Positions 427 to 23,275 of a stretch of DNA of 64,000 nucleotides are shown piece after piece. The notes under the pieces are model-generated. The model was not told where the DNA came from, made no database searches, and worked only from the letters and a program-made list of their open reading frames with translations. Source of the DNA: Saprospiraceae bacterium (lineage in GTDB: Bacteria > Bacteroidota > Bacteroidia > Chitinophagales > Saprospiraceae); contig JADJJU010000011.1 in NCBI GenBank assembly GCA_016706365.1, forward strand, positions 77,654 to 141,653, written 5' to 3'. The first letter of the stretch is position 1. Every line of letters begins with the position of its first letter. A program made the position numbers and the translations under genes.

Positions 427-452
427 GCAACTCCATATGGGGTTGCTTTTTT
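427..452 (+). terminator. rho-independent terminator after secG
   Basis: GCAACTCC-atat-GGGGTTGC stem (8 bp, one G.U) followed by TTTTTT. Confidence 0.75.
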
Positions 453-1018: not shown

Positions 1019-3364
1019 TCAAATACTGTACTTCGCACTCAGCAGGAATATTCTTGTTTCTCTTTTAGAATAGAAGGTATGGGAAAAGGTATCGGTCAAA
1101 CTGTTACCGGCAAAGCGGCGGGTATCGAATATGTCCCGAACACTTAGAGAAACAGATGCTTTTTTATTGAACAATGTTTTCTGAATACTGGCATCCATGA
1201 AATACTGTTCCAGGTCTTTGCCCTGAGCCTCGATTTCAGGAGAATCATAATTGAAAACAAGTTGCAGGGTAAATCCAAGCGGGAGTCTGAAATCTGATGT
1301 AATTTTTGTGTTAAACGCTACACCACTATTCACAAATTCATCACTGATATTGGATCCATCCACATCAATCATGAAAGCTGTGGCACTACCGGTAAGAGTA
1401 ATCCAGGAAGCAAACTCAGAAACACCGATTGCCTCCACTCCATAAGATTCCGCACTATTTAAATTTTCAGGTTGCGAATAGGAAATACCATCCTCTACAT
1501 AGGTGATAAAATCCAACTGTCCATTGACTTGTCGGTAAAAGAAATTCGTTGTGAAGCTTGCCTTGTCCACTTCAAAAATATGACCGAGCTCCAGGGAGTT
1601 AATTAATTCAGGTTGTAGATTAGGATTCCCTCTTCTTACATTCAATGAATCTGTTATATCCGGGAATGGATTCAATCTCCAGGCAGTTGGTCTGTCAATC
1701 CTGCGGCTGTATGTGAATTTTGCAGCATGCTTATCATTAAGACGATATAGAGTCTGTAGGCTGGGAAATAAATTGAAATAGCTCTGGGTATTGCGCTGAT
1801 CTGTATTGTGCAGGTAAGTTTCGAAGTTGGTCAATTCTCCCCGGAGACCTGCTGTGATGTCCCATTTACCAGAAGTTCTTGCAAGAATTACATAAGCTGC
1901 GTGAATTCTATCCCTGTAATCAAAGCGATTACTGATAGCAGGATCTTCCTCAAAGATTTGACCTGGTTCATTGAATCGGGCAAAGTCATAATCGTATTCA
2001 AAATTTCTGATATTGGACTTCAGACCTGCCTCCATTTTCATACTCTCATTAATAGGATGGATGTAATCCCCCTGAAAAATATAATTAAAACGCTTTTCAT
2101 CCGTAAATGCTCTCTCCTGCCCTTCCGGATCAAATCCAGGAATTTGTACGTCTCTGAAAATGTCTATTTGCTGAGTTTTATACTGATTTGTGTATGATTG
2201 ACTCGCCATCATTTTGAATGAACGCTCTTTATTGTCGAAAGTCCTTTCGTAAATCAAGGCATTGTCTAATCCATCATCAGTTTCGGACTCAGTATTTCTT
2301 CTGACATATTCCTGCAATAATTCGCCGGATTCCAGGCTTGTTAACCTTGAATATAGCGTATTCAAATCATTATCAAGGCTGGTATTATATACTCCCTCGT
2401 AGCTCAGAATATTTTTTCCAAAATAATAATCTCCGCCATAAGTAAAGTTGTGCCCCAGATTATCGCTTTTATTGGCTGTTTCCTGTCGCAGAAATTCACC
2501 TTCTCCAAAAATTTCTCTGTCTCTTACCCTTGTGCCTACATTAAGCCATCGTCTCAAGTTGTAACCACCATAGATATTGAATTCAATAGCCCGATGATTG
2601 AGTTGTGCCCCCAGATTCATACGTCCCCGAGTACCATAAAGTGCATCGATATTGGCATTGGTGCCTAAATTATCCCCTTTTTTCAGAATGATATCTATAA
2701 TTCCTGCTTCGGCTTCTGCATCATAGCGGGCATTTGGATTGTTGATGATTTTGATTTGCTCGATAGCTGAGGCCGGTATTCTTTCAAGGTTTTGAGTCAG
2801 AGAAGAATTGCGGCCATTTATCAGCACATTGGTACCTGAACTACCACGCAGAGATACAGATCCATCATCGCTCACACTTACTGAAGGTGTATTTCTAAGA
2901 ATATCCAGCAAAGTACCACCAAGATTAGAAAGATTTTGATCAGGATTGATGGTGAGCCCCTCGACATTTGTTCGCATTTGAAGCTTCGAACTTTGAACTA
3001 CGACTTCACCGAGCTGCATGGATTCATCTGCCAACTCGATTTCTCCCATATCTACATCTGAATCAACAATTACATTTGGAATTACCAGATCTTCATATCC
3101 CAACAGGAAAAATTTAATTGTGTAAGTTCCAGTATATATTTTCATACTAAAATTACCATCAAGGTCTGTTTCAGCGGACACTAAAGGTGTTGTCTGCTCT
3201 CCTGTAAATGCTGCTACCTGAAGGAAGGAAACGGGTTGATTTGTCTTTTCATCGAGCACTTTTCCGCTGACTGTGAGCAGCTCAATATCGTATTGAGCGA
3301 ATGTATTTGCAGAGAAAAATAATAAGATAAAAGTAAATATGCTATATTTTATTAATATATTCAT
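1019..3364 (-). CDS. TonB-dependent-receptor-like outer membrane beta-barrel protein with N-terminal carboxypeptidase-regulatory-like domain
   Basis: 781 aa; signal peptide ending FAQ; CarbopepD_reg-like VSGKVLDEKTNQPVSFLQV; plug-like SVSLRGSSGTNVLINGR; long beta-rich C-terminal part. Confidence 0.8.
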   Translation of the reverse strand: MNILIKYSIFTFILLFFSANTFAQYDIELLTVSGKVLDEKTNQPVSFLQVAAFTGEQTTPLVSAETDLDGNFSMKIYTGTYTIKFFLLGYEDLVIPNVIVDSDVDMGEIELADESMQLGEVVVQSSKLQMRTNVEGLTINPDQNLSNLGGTLLDILRNTPSVSVSDDGSVSLRGSSGTNVLINGRNSSLTQNLERIPASAIEQIKIINNPNARYDAEAEAGIIDIILKKGDNLGTNANIDALYGTRGRMNLGAQLNHRAIEFNIYGGYNLRRWLNVGTRVRDREIFGEGEFLRQETANKSDNLGHNFTYGGDYYFGKNILSYEGVYNTSLDNDLNTLYSRLTSLESGELLQEYVRRNTESETDDGLDNALIYERTFDNKERSFKMMASQSYTNQYKTQQIDIFRDVQIPGFDPEGQERAFTDEKRFNYIFQGDYIHPINESMKMEAGLKSNIRNFEYDYDFARFNEPGQIFEEDPAISNRFDYRDRIHAAYVILARTSGKWDITAGLRGELTNFETYLHNTDQRNTQSYFNLFPSLQTLYRLNDKHAAKFTYSRRIDRPTAWRLNPFPDITDSLNVRRGNPNLQPELINSLELGHIFEVDKASFTTNFFYRQVNGQLDFITYVEDGISYSQPENLNSAESYGVEAIGVSEFASWITLTGSATAFMIDVDGSNISDEFVNSGVAFNTKITSDFRLPLGFTLQLVFNYDSPEIEAQGKDLEQYFMDASIQKTLFNKKASVSLSVRDIFDTRRFAGNSLTDTFSHTFYSKRETRIFLLSAKYSI

Positions 3365-3451: not shown

Positions 3452-3548
3452 AACAGCTGCAACCTTGTTGCTGGTTGCTGGTTGCTGGTTGCTGGTTGCT
3501 GGTGAACAGCCGCTTCTAGCTCTGGCTTTTGGCTTTTGGCAAACAGCC
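3452..3548. repeat. AACAGCC-punctuated module including heptanucleotide microsatellite (GTTGCTG)x5 at 3467-3501
   Basis: AACAGCT at 3452, AACAGCC at 3505 and 3542; five exact tandem GTTGCTG units; words CTTCTAGCTCTGGCTTTTGGCTTTTGGC. Confidence 0.85.
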
Positions 3549-3774
3549 AGTGTGGGTGAAACGCTTGGTGTTTGTATCTTCTCCAACTCAAACTGACTCA
3601 CACCCATACAAACTCACGCTCTACACCCTGAACTCAATCGGGGGCTCCGCACGCACATCACCTCAGCAATAAATTGACTGCAAAGCAGACAATTTATTGC
3701 TGAGACATCACTTCTTCGCGGCGTAGCCATGAAGAAACATCACCTTTCCAGCCGCAGGTGCAGAAAGACATCAC
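3542..3774 (+). repeat. copy B of the ~235-nt intergenic module (ACATCAC hairpin array 3655-3774)
   Basis: Collinear with 724-956; ACATCAC(C) at 3655, 3705, 3737 and 3768. Confidence 0.85.
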
Positions 3775-3819
3775 AGCAGCTCCACACTCAAATTTAAAAT
3801 TAAAACAAAAAATATTTCC

Positions 3820-8249: not shown

Positions 8250-8441
8250 CTGGTTGCTGGTTGCTGGTTGAACAGCTAATTGGTGACTTGGTGAATTGGC
8301 GAATCAAACAGCCAATGAAACAGCCAATTACCAGCCTCGAAAACTACGAACTTAGGAGTTTTGCCCTGCATAGTCATGTGAGTGTGAGTGTGAGTGTCGT
8401 AGCTGGAAGCTACTGGAAGCATGGATGTGTGAGAAACAGCC
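8250..8441. repeat. AACAGCC-punctuated stuttered-word block
   Basis: (GGTTGCT)n at 8252-8270, AACAGCT at 8271, AACAGCC at 8307, 8319 and 8435; stutters TTGGTGACTTGGTGAATTGGCG, GTGAGTGTGAGTGTGAGTGT, GCTGGAAGCTACTGGAAGC. Confidence 0.8.
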
Positions 8442-8479
8442 GGGAAAAATTTTGAGTTATGAGATGCAATACGTTTCTG

Positions 8480-9781: not shown

Positions 9782-9960
9782 GCAGCCGGTAAACAGCCTC
9801 GTTAAAGCGGTAAAGCGTTGAATCGGAAACAGCCGAAAAGAAGCTGCAAGCTACAAGATGCAAGCTGCAAGAAAACAGCCGGAACAGCATTGTTAAAGAT
9901 TTGAGTAGGGAGCTGCTGTAGGGGCCAATCAAGATTCGTCATATCTCTGCAGGAACAGCC
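9781..9960. repeat. AACAGCC-punctuated stuttered-word block
   Basis: AGCAGCC at 9781; AACAGCC at 9792, 9828, 9874 and 9954; AACAGCA at 9883; stutters GTTAAAGCGGTAAAGCG and AAGCTGCAAGCTACAAGATGCAAGCTGCAAG. Confidence 0.8.
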
Positions 9961-16991: not shown

Positions 16992-18413
16992 TCACCTCTT
17001 CAGCACCTTAAACCTCTCCACCTGAATCTGCTTGCTATCTGATACTTCCAATATATACAGTCCCGGCATCAAATGACTGATATCCAGAGATCCACCATCT
17101 GAATTGTGTAGTACAATATTGCCGCGAATATCCCTGACAATGACTACCGGAATATCCTGAGAACTGCCATTGATATGAATAATATCATCTGCTGGATTAG
17201 GATAAATGTTCCAGCCATTTTGCTTGATTGTGATAACTTTCATAGGAGAGTATTTCACCATACCATCCTGAGTGCTTAGCTTCAGCCGATAATAATTCTT
17301 ACCATTAAAAGGATTATTGTGAAAATATCTTATGGCTTGATCTGTTGAAGTCTCAGATCGAAATGAATGTATTGTTTGGAAAATCTGCTTTGAATCACTA
17401 TGCTGCAATTCGATTGAAGCCAGCGTTTCAGATGATTCCACTTTAAACTGAATCAGTACCTGTTTACCCGCCTCAGAAGCCTCAAACATTGTAAAATCGG
17501 TATTAAGAAACTGGTACACCCCTGTTGGAGGGTAAGAAGTAACCACTTCCCAAATCATATTTTGAAGATACGCAGCGAGCTGTGGGGAAGGGATAGGTGT
17601 CCCGCCGGGAGCATTGGGCAACAGATTATTTGGCAATCCAACAGGACTCAAATTATAAATACAGGCATAATGAATCATTGCAATTGCATATGCTCCCAGT
17701 TCATTAGTGTGTATATTATCAGAAAAGAAATCAGAAATATGATCCACATCCGGCACCAGATCAAGCTGAATGTCATCATACAGCCGGGCCATCATTTTAT
17801 GTCCCGGAATCAAATAAACAGGAGGGCTTCCTGGCAGAAGATTTTCGTTGGCAAATTCCTGCATATTCTCCCATTCTTCTCCCAGAACATCCAGCATGGT
17901 TCGCCATGGGCCGTCAGAATTGTCGATATTTGTCCAGGTGGTCCATAATAATGTCGGAGCTCCATCGCCTCCATTCCCATTTGCCCAGGCATTATTTGTA
18001 AAATCGGATAATTTTTGCCTTTGCTCAGCAATGGCTTCTATATACCATTGTTGTGTACTGCCCCCTTCATAATATAGGGGCACACTTTGCGTGATACTCA
18101 ATAATTCCCAGTCAGCAATATCATGCCTGGCATCGGGGGCGCCACAGCAGGGAGGATTATCCCAACGCCATGACAATGAAGATCCTGGAATGGTTGACTT
18201 CCCAATCATATCTCCGGACCATTCTCCTAAAACTTCGTTCATCAAATTTACATATTGACCCGGCCAGTGAGGATAAAACAAAGGATCTGTGAGACTGTGG
18301 CCGGAATGGATCTGAAGTACATTGAAAGGATAAGCTTCTTTAGGTGGTAATTGAGCCTGAGCGTTCAATGTTAATATCAGGAAGCTCAACATCAAAAGTC
18401 CAATTCGTGTCAT
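16992..18413 (-). CDS. secreted SGNH/GDSL-like hydrolase-fold protein with T9SS C-terminal domain
   Basis: 473 aa; signal peptide; IHSGHSLTD (block I-like) and DNIHTNELG (block V-like); CTD WNIYPNPADDIIHI...GLYILEVSD. Confidence 0.55.
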   Translation of the reverse strand: MTRIGLLMLSFLILTLNAQAQLPPKEAYPFNVLQIHSGHSLTDPLFYPHWPGQYVNLMNEVLGEWSGDMIGKSTIPGSSLSWRWDNPPCCGAPDARHDIADWELLSITQSVPLYYEGGSTQQWYIEAIAEQRQKLSDFTNNAWANGNGGDGAPTLLWTTWTNIDNSDGPWRTMLDVLGEEWENMQEFANENLLPGSPPVYLIPGHKMMARLYDDIQLDLVPDVDHISDFFSDNIHTNELGAYAIAMIHYACIYNLSPVGLPNNLLPNAPGGTPIPSPQLAAYLQNMIWEVVTSYPPTGVYQFLNTDFTMFEASEAGKQVLIQFKVESSETLASIELQHSDSKQIFQTIHSFRSETSTDQAIRYFHNNPFNGKNYYRLKLSTQDGMVKYSPMKVITIKQNGWNIYPNPADDIIHINGSSQDIPVVIVRDIRGNIVLHNSDGGSLDISHLMPGLYILEVSDSKQIQVERFKVLKR

Positions 18414-18570
18414 GAAGGGTTCTGTTTGGCATTTTTAAAGACTGATAAAAGTAAACAATTTTATTAACCGGGCAAAAGGGGATTGGGTTTGGAGAGATAA
18501 TATATGTGCGTTTGAGTGAGAGTATTTTGAGTTGTTTTTTTGACGAAATGAAGTGGCTGGCTCCTGGAGA

Positions 18571-18951
18571 GGTGATGTCCCGGCTTCGCTGCGCTATGCC
18601 GGGGTGATGTCTTTTCACAGCTTCGCTGTTAAAAGGTGATGTTTTTTTGTTTTCTGCAGCTTCGCTTAGAAAACAAAAAGGTGATGTGCAAGCGGAGCTT
18701 GCGGATGAGTAGTGTGTCTTGTGCATGAGTCTGTTTGAGAGTTGAGTCTGTGCGTGTTTTGACAAGTACCAAACTCCTCACTCGAACAAACCCACACTCA
18801 AAACAATGAACCCAACCGCGAGTCCGCGAGATCGCACATCACCTTTGTTCTATTGAGGCGTAGCCGAAAATAGAATAAAGACATCACTTCTTCGCAGCGC
18901 AGCTGTGAAGAAACATCACCTTGCAAGCCGTAGGCGCAGCAAGACATCACC
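18571..18951. repeat. head-to-head inverted pair of ACATCAC hairpin-array modules
   Basis: GGTGATGT at 18571, 18603, 18635 and 18680 (reverse orientation) faces ACATCAC(C) at 18836, 18881, 18913 and 18944; G/T-rich arm 18705-18760 opposite C/A-rich arm 18768-18815. Confidence 0.85.
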
Positions 18952-19296
18952 TCGTTTCGACCATATCACCGGAAATAGTTGCAATTATTTGAAGTCGAAG
19001 CTGTGTAAGTTTGAGTACACGCATTACTGAATGTTACTTCGAGCAAGTGGGAGAAAACAGCCAGTTTAATGGCTACACAATTTTTTAAAATCTGGTATTT
19101 GGATAAAATGCAAGTGCAAATAAATTGACAATGTTAACAGTGGAGTTTGAGATGCGTGTGCTTTTGATTGCTAATAAATTAGCAAAACCAAAGAGCCAGT
19201 GAACAAGAGTAGGTTCAATAATTCACTATATTTGACAGTAGGAAATATATTAATCAACTTATTAAATTTTCTGGTAAATACTCTTTAATAAATCCC

Positions 19297-19668
19297 ATGG
19301 ATCACCGCTTTGAAATTTATAGTATAAATAATGTCAGGATTGCAAGAATTCTTCCGGAAGGAATAGTCATAAAAAATGAACAGGACGCCCTCGACTTGAT
19401 AGCAAACTGCTATTACAGCGGAGCATCAAAACTGCTCATTCATGAAACCCAAATACACCCTGATTTCTTTGACCTGAAAAGCGGATTGGCGGGTGAAATA
19501 TTACAAAAGTTCTCAAATTATCAGGCTCAACTAGCTATCATTGGTGATTTTTTAAAATACTCAAGCAATAGTCTGCAGGATTTTATTCGTGAAAGTAATC
19601 GGGCGGGAAGAATATTTTTTACAGCAAATGAGGAAGATGGAATAAACAAACTGGCGCAGGGTTCTTAG
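19297..19668 (+). CDS. DUF4180 domain protein
   Basis: 123 aa; ALDLIANCYY...HPDFFDLKSGLAGEILQKFSNYQAQLAIIGDF pattern typical of the family. Confidence 0.6.
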   Translation: MDHRFEIYSINNVRIARILPEGIVIKNEQDALDLIANCYYSGASKLLIHETQIHPDFFDLKSGLAGEILQKFSNYQAQLAIIGDFLKYSSNSLQDFIRESNRAGRIFFTANEEDGINKLAQGS

Positions 19669-19892
19669 CCTTCCTGAAAGAAAATGGTTGAAATTCTTCC
19701 TGCAAATGCCTTCACTTTGAGAGAATTAAGCATTAATCTCTGGCATTTAATGTAAAATCATTACGTATTTCGAATGATGCTGTGCAGTTCATCACCTGGT
19801 GAATTCAACAATTCATGAACTTCGCTTATTTCGGTCAAACCTAAACTTTGTGGCAAAATAGTTTGCGCAATAAACATATAGTAAAAAACATA

Positions 19893-22523: not shown

Positions 22524-22761
22524 GAGAATAGTTGAAATTCATCTGTATTAAGAGTTGCATAACGATATCAATCAAAAAACAATTTTCACTATTCAAGTTG
22601 AAAATTTGTCACTCATCAAAATTTCTACTTCGACTTTAATTTTTTATCTCAATCTTTGAGAAGAATAATCAGAGTTTGCATCGTTATTCATTTGCAGAGG
22701 CGTTCTGCAAGGCGGATTCCGAAAAGCCATAAGAGTAGGAAAAATATTTAAATAACTAAAA

Positions 22762-23169: not shown

Positions 23170-23275
23170 TCTGAACAGCCGTTGAATCGGTTAATCGGTT
23201 AAGTGTATAAGCGAAGTGTGAAGAAACAGCCGCTATTGGCTTTTGGCTGTTAGCTTTTGGCTAACAGCCGGAGCT
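23170..23275. repeat. AACAGCC-punctuated module with perfect 10-bp hairpin
   Basis: AACAGCC at 23174, 23225 and 23263; GGCTGTTAGC(23245-23254)-ttttg-GCTAACAGCC(23260-23269); stutter GAATCGGTTAATCGGTTAAG. Confidence 0.85.

Follow-up and report, generated by a model that had tools for sequence, protein, structure and literature searches.

A window of 64,000 nt from the genome of a Saprospiraceae bacterium (contig JADJJU010000011.1, positions 77,654 to 141,653 of the forward strand; coordinates below count from its first letter) holds a quasi-palindrome of about 380 nt in the gap between two divergent genes. Comparisons of sequence suggest that this locus is a pair of divergent paralogs of a new structured family, which most likely acts as RNA, in a length of about 170-230 nt. 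The palindromic look of the locus arises because two modules of this family stand head to head, and not from a selected long hairpin. The family appears to be a previously undescribed, multi-copy and structured one in a group of Saprospiraceae, and so far it is known from a single clade of these bacteria.

On the ACAUCAC strand, each module has a small GC hairpin (P0), which is followed by a linker, hairpin HP1, a second linker, HP2, a third linker, HP3 and a last linker. The four linkers are ACAUCAC(C) heptamers that flank and separate the three hairpins and are single-stranded in the fold. Within a module their starts are 45-50, then 32, then 31-32 nt apart, and the number of units is constant at four. 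Apical loops on this strand are mostly C-GNA-G triloops.

Among the 40 copies collected, compensatory changes occur at 28 of the 33 base pairs. Paired cells reach 94.9%, compared with 74.9% in column shuffles and 43-53% in controls with slid partners, and the covariation score of 0.531 (0.165 for shuffles) was equalled in none of 500 shuffles. Hairpin sequences drift and pairing is kept; what is conserved is the linkers and a few loop bases, with CAUCAC invariant in all four linkers of the 40 copies and unpaired in every fold. The ACAUCAC strand is taken to be the strand that folds because of its excess of G.U over A.C pairs (27 vs 14, p = 0.03) and because of the GNA loops there. Selection, as read from these alignments, acts on the single-strand fold of that strand.

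The covariance model was built from 31 copies, and later loci raised the total to 40, which come from the window, the Saprospiraceae metagenome-assembled genome (MAG) JALHRR01 and the metagenomes SXGS01 and JGI 3300063261. Copies are pairwise 50-80% identical. In the window this model returns exactly four copies, with the next best match at 11.8 bits. No family of Rfam 15 matches the modules at gathering or permissive thresholds, and the best match in 18000-19700 (Yfr2-5 / Cyano-1, 19.6 bits against a gathering threshold of 41, E = 2.8) is at chance level. Modules had no match in viral contigs, phage records or plasmid records. Literature searches returned only primers and siRNAs for the heptamer, and nothing relevant for small RNAs or hairpins of Saprospiraceae. 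A first pattern scan, over one genome per species, was loose and gave at least 111 loci; taxonomic range and copy number from it are lower bounds. Most of these loci were coding repeats or CACCACATCACC microsatellites, not modules, and the only true members among the matches listed were in JALHRR01. A stricter pattern gave 18 contigs, every one from SXGS01.

Positions of the modules are conserved as well. Homologs of the DUF4180 gene beside the pair lead to two syntenic loci, L131 (protein 81% identical) and L133 in JALHRR01 (72%), and both carry the same head-to-head pair in the orthologous gap, between a gene with a type IX secretion system (T9SS) tail and the DUF4180 gene. In addition, the ortholog of a TonB-dependent receptor gene in JALHRR01 (89%) is flanked by orthologs of the two other window copies, c1 and c2, and all four window copies are syntenic in this genome. 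This synteny agrees with the Saprospiraceae origin of the window, as do the T9SS sorting domains of neighbouring proteins. Between the window and its relatives, identity is 37-59% at four-fold degenerate sites of the genes on either side and 77-88% in modules; for JALHRR01, where all four copies have counterparts, such silent sites are at 41-59%. In the orthologous gap of the two relatives the pair modules are 81-88% identical, with silent sites near saturation. Since modules at syntenic positions lie far above silent-site identity, they are old, vertically inherited and under purifying selection. The earlier note on this locus had held that the two arms share their architecture, have diverged in sequence and are no fresh duplication. 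This is borne out: the minus-strand module c3 and the plus-strand module c4 are 62% identical, and the copies are old and present at the orthologous gap in relatives. In a third relative (L132) there is no pair beside the DUF4180 gene, where the left-hand gene is also different. Locus L125 was considered as a further ortholog of the window locus and rejected, its 125-aa neighbour being unrelated to DUF4180.

The pair and the other window copies

The pair spans 18550-18972, with c3 on the minus strand and c4 on the plus strand in divergent orientation, and the features given for it in the earlier note are found in the letters. The reverse array has ACATCACC on the minus strand, with starts at 18571, 18603, 18635 and 18680, and the forward array has ACATCAC on the plus strand, with starts at 18836, 18881, 18913 and 18944. 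None of 100 shuffles reaches the 14 occurrences of the octamer ACATCACC in the window, for which the expected number is 1.78. Small GC hairpins lie at 18688-18702 (gcaagc-gga-gcttgc) and 18817-18828 (cgcg-agtc-cgcg), with a G/T-rich arm at 18705-18760 and a C/A-rich arm at 18768-18815. Each interval between consecutive heptamers is one hairpin, and the inverted arms of the pair (87 nt) are 74% complementary. The divergent gap, put at about 880 nt, measures 883 nt. On its left is the open reading frame (ORF) 16992-18413 (-), which encodes a 473-aa protein with a T9SS C-terminal sorting domain (an exact look-up of this protein gave no record), and on its right is the DUF4180 gene, 19297-19668 (+).

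On the minus strand, c3 occupies 18550-18765, of which 18550-18714 matches the covariance model at 117.4 bits (E = 7e-30), and has its orthologs in L131 and L133. Its C/A-rich leader (about 18703-18765) is followed by P0 (18688-18702), linker 1 (18680-18687), HP1 (18643-18680), linker 2 (18635-18642), HP2 (18611-18635), linker 3 (18603-18610), HP3 (18579-18603), linker 4 (18571-18578) and a 3′ tail to about 18550. Folded as RNA, c3 forms local hairpins with unpaired linkers. On the plus strand, c4 occupies 18768-19003 (model match 18806-18972, 152 bits, E = 3e-39), with a C/A-rich leader at 18768-18815, P0 at 18817-18828, linker 1 at 18836-18843, HP1 at 18843-18880, linker 2 at 18881-18887, HP2 at 18888-18912, linker 3 at 18913-18920, HP3 at 18920-18943 and linker 4 at 18944-18951. 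Its 3′ tail carries an extra hairpin, P4 (TTTCGAC...GTCGAA, about 18955-19003), which is kept in L131, L133, L039 and L060. At the centre of the pair (18703-18815) the two leaders stand back to back, and the plus strand is G/T-rich and then C/A-rich. The middle 25-30 nt of this centre is not conserved in alignments of the orthologs.

Three ORFs run through this region (18340-18765, 18629-18781 and 18798-18950). A coding reading of them was rejected: indels between orthologs are not multiples of three, and substitutions track base pairing. Hairpin lengths also vary by non-multiples of three.

The remaining ACATCACC matches led to two extra copies on the plus strand, at 809-977 and 3628-3796. 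With their 5′ parts these are module c1 (765-977, 129.9 bits, fold z = -4.15), between secG (+) and a convergent TonB-dependent receptor gene (-), and module c2 (3584-3796, 128.1 bits, fold z = -5.71), whose neighbours are the same receptor gene (-) and, on its other side, an ArsR-family gene (+). All four window copies can be aligned end to end, and each one folded alone gives three hairpins with unpaired 7-nt linkers (z = -3.2 to -5.7). The ortholog of c1 is L136 8452-8616, in which leader, HP2 and HP3 are conserved and HP1 is swapped as a block: HP1 of c1 (845-885) is of the long 'CTCCGAAAAAAATTG...' type, and that of the ortholog is of the c4-like 'TTTGTTTTATTGAGGC...' type. This difference implies a cassette-like exchange or gene conversion among paralogs. 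The ortholog of c2 (L136 5456-5647, 87 bits) has a 23-nt insertion, ACTTGTGGTGAGGAATCGAAC, within linker 3, and this is the sole disrupted heptamer seen.

Modules differ in their 5′ parts. About half of the copies (type A) have the C/A-rich, G-poor leader, with 27-39% C and 4-19% G across about 67 nt; types B and C are without it. In type B the 5′ part consists of AACAGCCGG, a hairpin, a T-run and GCGCTAGCC, and in type C it ends in ...CGCGAAGC.

Long hairpin, mobile elements and Rho

Most family members are single copies, and inversion is seen only at the level of whole modules, in 5 of about 35 loci. The c3 type was found only in doublets (5/5). Besides the orthologous gaps, the c3-type/c4-type doublet stands in two non-syntenic contexts: in L118 it lies between convergent methyltransferase and short-chain dehydrogenase/reductase (SDR) genes, and in L125 (about 1700-1860) it has a central insertion of about 160 nt. 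At some point, therefore, the doublet was duplicated or transferred as a whole. The L125 insertion holds a solo GGTGATGT and then a small GC hairpin, which is a fragment of a third module.

According to the earlier note, the quasi-palindrome might act as one unit, a DNA cruciform or long G.U-rich RNA hairpin affecting both divergent promoters. Single-strand folding does strongly favour a long hairpin: the 411-nt region folded as one RNA strand gives -189.6 kcal/mol (z = -11.6), and the same region folded as DNA gives -94 kcal/mol (z = -8.0). Moreover, the pair arrangement is kept in five loci. However, the inter-arm pairs of these five loci do not covary (score 0.100 and a shuffle value of 0.106, with 352 of 500 shuffles as high), whereas the local hairpins do on the same alignment (0.253 against 0.106, 0 of 500 as high), and the 87.5% pairing of the long hairpin is explained by the invariant linkers and the shared U-rich/A-rich composition of the stems. 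Within a locus c3 and c4 are 53-62% identical, no more than c3 and unrelated copies, and c4 is nearer to solo copies elsewhere (up to 80% identical). HP1 of c4 is wholly changed between orthologs with no matching change in c3. With a centre that tolerates 160 nt of insertion in L125, with mostly solo members and with the L118 pair between convergent genes, control of two promoters by one long structure is highly improbable. We also give very little credit to the suggestion that the pair is a miniature inverted-repeat transposable element (MITE), that is, a non-autonomous transposon with the two arrays as its structured terminal inverted repeats. In its favour are the inverted ends, the three genomic contexts of the doublet and the lack of a pair beside the DUF4180 gene of L132, though the left-hand neighbour differs there too. 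Against this, the pair is at the orthologous gap in two relatives so diverged that silent sites are near saturation, the arms are only 62-74% matched, copies are old, only 50-80% alike and subject to purifying selection, the pair ends show no definable target-site duplication, and no autonomous partner was seen.

A repeated extragenic element, built of hairpins and loosely like repetitive extragenic palindromic (REP) sequences, does sit between the two divergent genes, as the earlier note had it. Alternating REPs of the bacterial interspersed mosaic element (BIME) type are not what we find, since all four units of a module have the same orientation and only pairing and the 7-nt linkers are conserved, not hairpin sequence. 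In a broader REP-, REPIN- or BIME-like explanation, a Y1 (HUH) transposase of the REP-associated tyrosine transposase (RAYT) type would recognise the unit of hairpin and ACATCAC in its single-stranded DNA form; the pair would be a replicative doublet, single copies would be remnants, and pairing would be kept since only foldable copies propagate. The REP, BIME and REPIN elements of Proteobacteria, with their RAYT, are likewise short extragenic hairpin repeats with kept pairing, present in many copies, often in clusters and convergent gaps and sometimes as inverted doublets. The present copies are extragenic, numerous and clustered in consecutive gaps, and 13 of the 27 with both flanks known lie between convergent genes. 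The same doublet in the window, L118 and L125, the restriction of the c3 type to doublets, the invariant short motif at each hairpin foot and the contigs of short reads that break within modules would also suit this explanation, as would the GNA triloops, which are typical of stable DNA hairpins. Unlike in REPs, however, stems vary freely here and only the 7-nt linker is invariant; units are in tandem, with four differentiated hairpins and often a 60-nt leader; and copies stay at orthologous sites across deep divergence, conserved far above silent sites. No transposase-like ORF stands beside any copy, and no RAYT was found: a tblastn search of 228 kb of family-bearing DNA with an IS200 TnpA query gave nothing credible, its single match being a CinA-like gene. 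Phages, plasmids and viral contigs gave no match either, and we consider a REP-like origin unlikely. Slightly more doubtful to us is a Rho-loading terminator or insulator, in which the C-rich, G-poor leader, the ACAUCAC linkers and the hairpin clasps would make a structured rut site that halts read-through. Leader composition in type A would fit such a site, no promoter of its own would be needed, and the distance from the 3′ end of the module to the stop codon of a gene convergent with it is often about 7-90 nt. Copies are oriented like the upstream gene and have no fixed gene partner, and the lambda tR1 layout (rutA, boxB hairpin, rutB) offers a precedent. Yet types B and C keep the array without the C/A-rich leader, the loose sequence preference of Rho does not account for a strictly invariant heptamer or for conserved internal loops, c1 is already downstream of the strong secG intrinsic terminator, and pairs occur in divergent gaps without an obvious incoming transcript.

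Possible roles of the four heptamers

It is an evenly balanced proposition, in our estimate, that the module shows four identical single-stranded sites, clamped by hairpins, to one sequence-specific reader, as a sponge or decoy or as a multi-seed small RNA (sRNA). The hairpins would serve as rigid spacers and as protection from nucleases, and the four ACAUCAC sites would bind several copies of one sequence-specific factor. Candidates for this factor are RNA-binding proteins and a complementary RNA, 5′-GGUGAUGU-3′.

Several observations weigh against an RNA role of this kind. TAnnTTTG is the consensus of the Bacteroidota -7 promoter box (with TTTG at -33), and most copies have no such box upstream; across the 37 copies scanned none recurs at a fixed distance, although an unusual promoter may be used instead. 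Orthologs lose their similarity 5′ of the conserved leader, and no terminator-like site (hairpin and T-run) was found 3′ of the array; some copies have a conserved tail and the P4 hairpin, but no T-run. Copy number is at least 14 in one MAG, which suits REP-type repeats better than typical sRNA genes, and copies cluster in successive gaps as REPs do (three copies within 5.5 kb in L039, two copies in L120 and four within 19 kb here). Elsewhere in the window the complement of the heptamer, GGTGATGT, shows no enrichment. Whole-hairpin exchange between paralogs inflates the cell counts of the covariation analysis; even so, the hairpins come in many distinct variants, every one of which is paired. 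Finally, it is chiefly from unusually stable mini-hairpins of DNA that C-GNA-G triloops are known, and the modules may therefore act as single-stranded DNA.

Among known systems, sponge RNAs (CsrB/RsmZ with GGA motifs, CrcZ with CA motifs) are alike in repeating a short unpaired motif on or between hairpins for multivalent binding. Here, in contrast, the motif is ACAUCAC, and sponges are usually encoded by 1-3 genes per genome, with a regulated promoter and a terminator; moreover, no CsrA is known from this lineage. BOX elements of Streptococcus pneumoniae, boxA-(boxB)n-boxC, are also modular, multi-copy intergenic repeats with stably folding sub-units, but BOX modules keep their sequence and differ in how many boxB units they contain, whereas four units are fixed here and sequence varies under a pairing constraint. 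The Yfr2-5 / Cyano-1 sRNAs of marine cyanobacteria share multiple copies and a conserved unpaired motif between hairpins, but differ in motif, architecture and phylum. Type III antitoxin arrays (ToxI-like) were rejected, as the three hairpins of a module differ and the neighbours are unrelated housekeeping genes, not an endoribonuclease toxin. Multi-copy sRNA families with at least 12 members are known in Bacteroidota, e.g. FopS, which binds the RNA-binding protein RbpB (PMC11697453). FopS/GibS of Bacteroides also have a dozen or more paralogous non-coding intergenic loci, where the functional site is probably a conserved stretch of single-stranded sequence; FopS carries a single 5′ seed and is equipped with a canonical sigma-ABfr promoter and a Rho-independent terminator (PMC11697453), whereas the present modules have four heptamers between hairpins, no recognisable promoter or terminator and no sequence similarity to it. 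The element recalls REP/BIME and pneumococcal BOX elements in genome anatomy, and CsrB, CrcZ or FopS-type RNAs in the way its motif is displayed, but in its defining features it departs from each of the families compared.

The modules are best classed as a new family within the broad kind of multi-copy structured intergenic elements and sRNA families. We propose, tentatively and with less confidence than the sponge or multi-seed role itself, that they represent a new class of regulatory RNA, a positionally conserved, multi-copy 'heptamer display' that titrates or recruits a sequence-specific factor genome-wide in Saprospiraceae, with the AACAGCC word arrays described below as part of the same intergenic signalling system. 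The factor could be an RNA-binding protein of KH, RRM or cold-shock type, Rho, or a nuclease. That the motif mimics the 3′ tail of 16S rRNA is a tentative idea: AUCACCU is like the tail to which Era binds in E. coli, but in Bacteroidota this tail may read AACACCU. To our knowledge, Bacteroidota have no Hfq, ProQ or CsrA and no Shine-Dalgarno pairing, and we know of little on their post-transcriptional control, with almost nothing outside gut Bacteroides. Clean covariation, four identical sites per molecule, many copies and purifying selection would make the module a suitable bait for the reader of ACAUCAC. In addition, the family offers a test case for telling functional RNA families from REP-type genomic repeats.

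Gene context and neighbouring repeats

All copies are intergenic. With both flanks called (n = 27), 13 copies lie in convergent, 8 in divergent and 5 in co-directional gaps, and one more comes from a spurious ORF. In co-directional gaps all 5 informative copies are oriented like the genes and none is opposite. The 3′ end of the module is often just 7-90 nt from the next gene, with a spacer of 120-530 nt on the 5′ side. Neighbours are functionally unrelated and include genes for secG, TonB-dependent receptors, ArsR, MutS, ABC-F, MgtC, thioesterase, OmpA, SDR and methyltransferase.

The only TAnnTTTG-type boxes in the gap of the pair lie one beside each flanking gene, both outside the pair. Upstream of DUF4180 the box TATATTTG is at 19227-19234 (+), about 63 nt from the start codon, and is kept in L131 and L133. 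A promoter-like box beside the 16992-18413 gene is at 18446-18453 (-), and the surrounding 150 nt is about 90% conserved in orthologs. Between c4 and the DUF4180 box, a stretch of about 130 nt (19040-19175) is present in the window, missing from both orthologous gaps, and holds another AACAGCCAGTTT. After the secG-like ORF an intrinsic terminator, GCAACTCCATATGGGGTTGC followed by TTTTTT, lies at 427-452 (+); it is found near base-for-base in L136, and a conserved GAACAGCCG stands directly 3′ of it.

Contigs L134, L135, L138 and L139, from short reads of public runs, start or stop inside modules. Near-identical stretches of HP2-HP3 and linker that tangle assemblies would explain these breaks, which hint that copies are numerous in those genomes. 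Short-read assemblies are thus interrupted at the modules, which the covariance model can be used to annotate.

Intergenic arrays of tandem 'words', with units of 7-8 nt, occur in the window at 460-760, 3455-3550, 8250-8445, 9785-9960 and 23170-23275. Words such as GGTTGCT, GTGAGT, GTTAAAGCG and CTGCAAG are punctuated by the heptamer AACAGCC, and the arrays begin just 3′ of the stop codons of plus-strand genes. AACAGCC is found 29 times in the window against 6.1 expected, with 23 of the 29 on the plus strand. In one orthologous place (GGTTGCT)n of the window corresponds to (GAGTTAT)n in the relative, and AACAGCC is kept. Leaders of the hairpin modules and their flanks are embedded in word arrays. 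A sigma-54 or extracytoplasmic function (ECF) type promoter on AACAGCC was considered by eye and rejected, as its spacing to a downstream T-rich box differs between types (11 vs 20 nt).

A second repeat stands upstream of some copies and consists of GT(A/G)G and a perfect hairpin (AGACGCAA-TGCY-TTGCGTCT, or GGGGCGATTCATGAATCGCCCC). Its sites are L115 about 2215-2240, L119 about 2385-2410, L127 about 1470-1495 and L021 about 560-595; it resembles a classical REP with a GTAG foot, and none was found in the window. Non-coding, microsatellite-like arrays of CACATCACC-type words are present in L022, L054, L072, L078, L086, L098 and L099. They come from other Bacteroidota MAGs (Chitinophagales, Sphingobacteriales, Lewinellaceae, Paludibacter) and give no match to the covariance model; the search pattern itself selects for such C/A-rich arrays.

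The only Rfam family found in the window is the DUF805b RNA motif (RF02914), at 22709-22741 (+), with 44.6 bits and above the gathering threshold. Close orthologs of the TonB-dependent receptor-like gene between c1 and c2 (1019-3364, -) are confined to its own clade (98%, 89%) and are followed by homologs from Cytophagales (Catalinimonas 71%, Belliella 66%), which may reflect lateral transfer.

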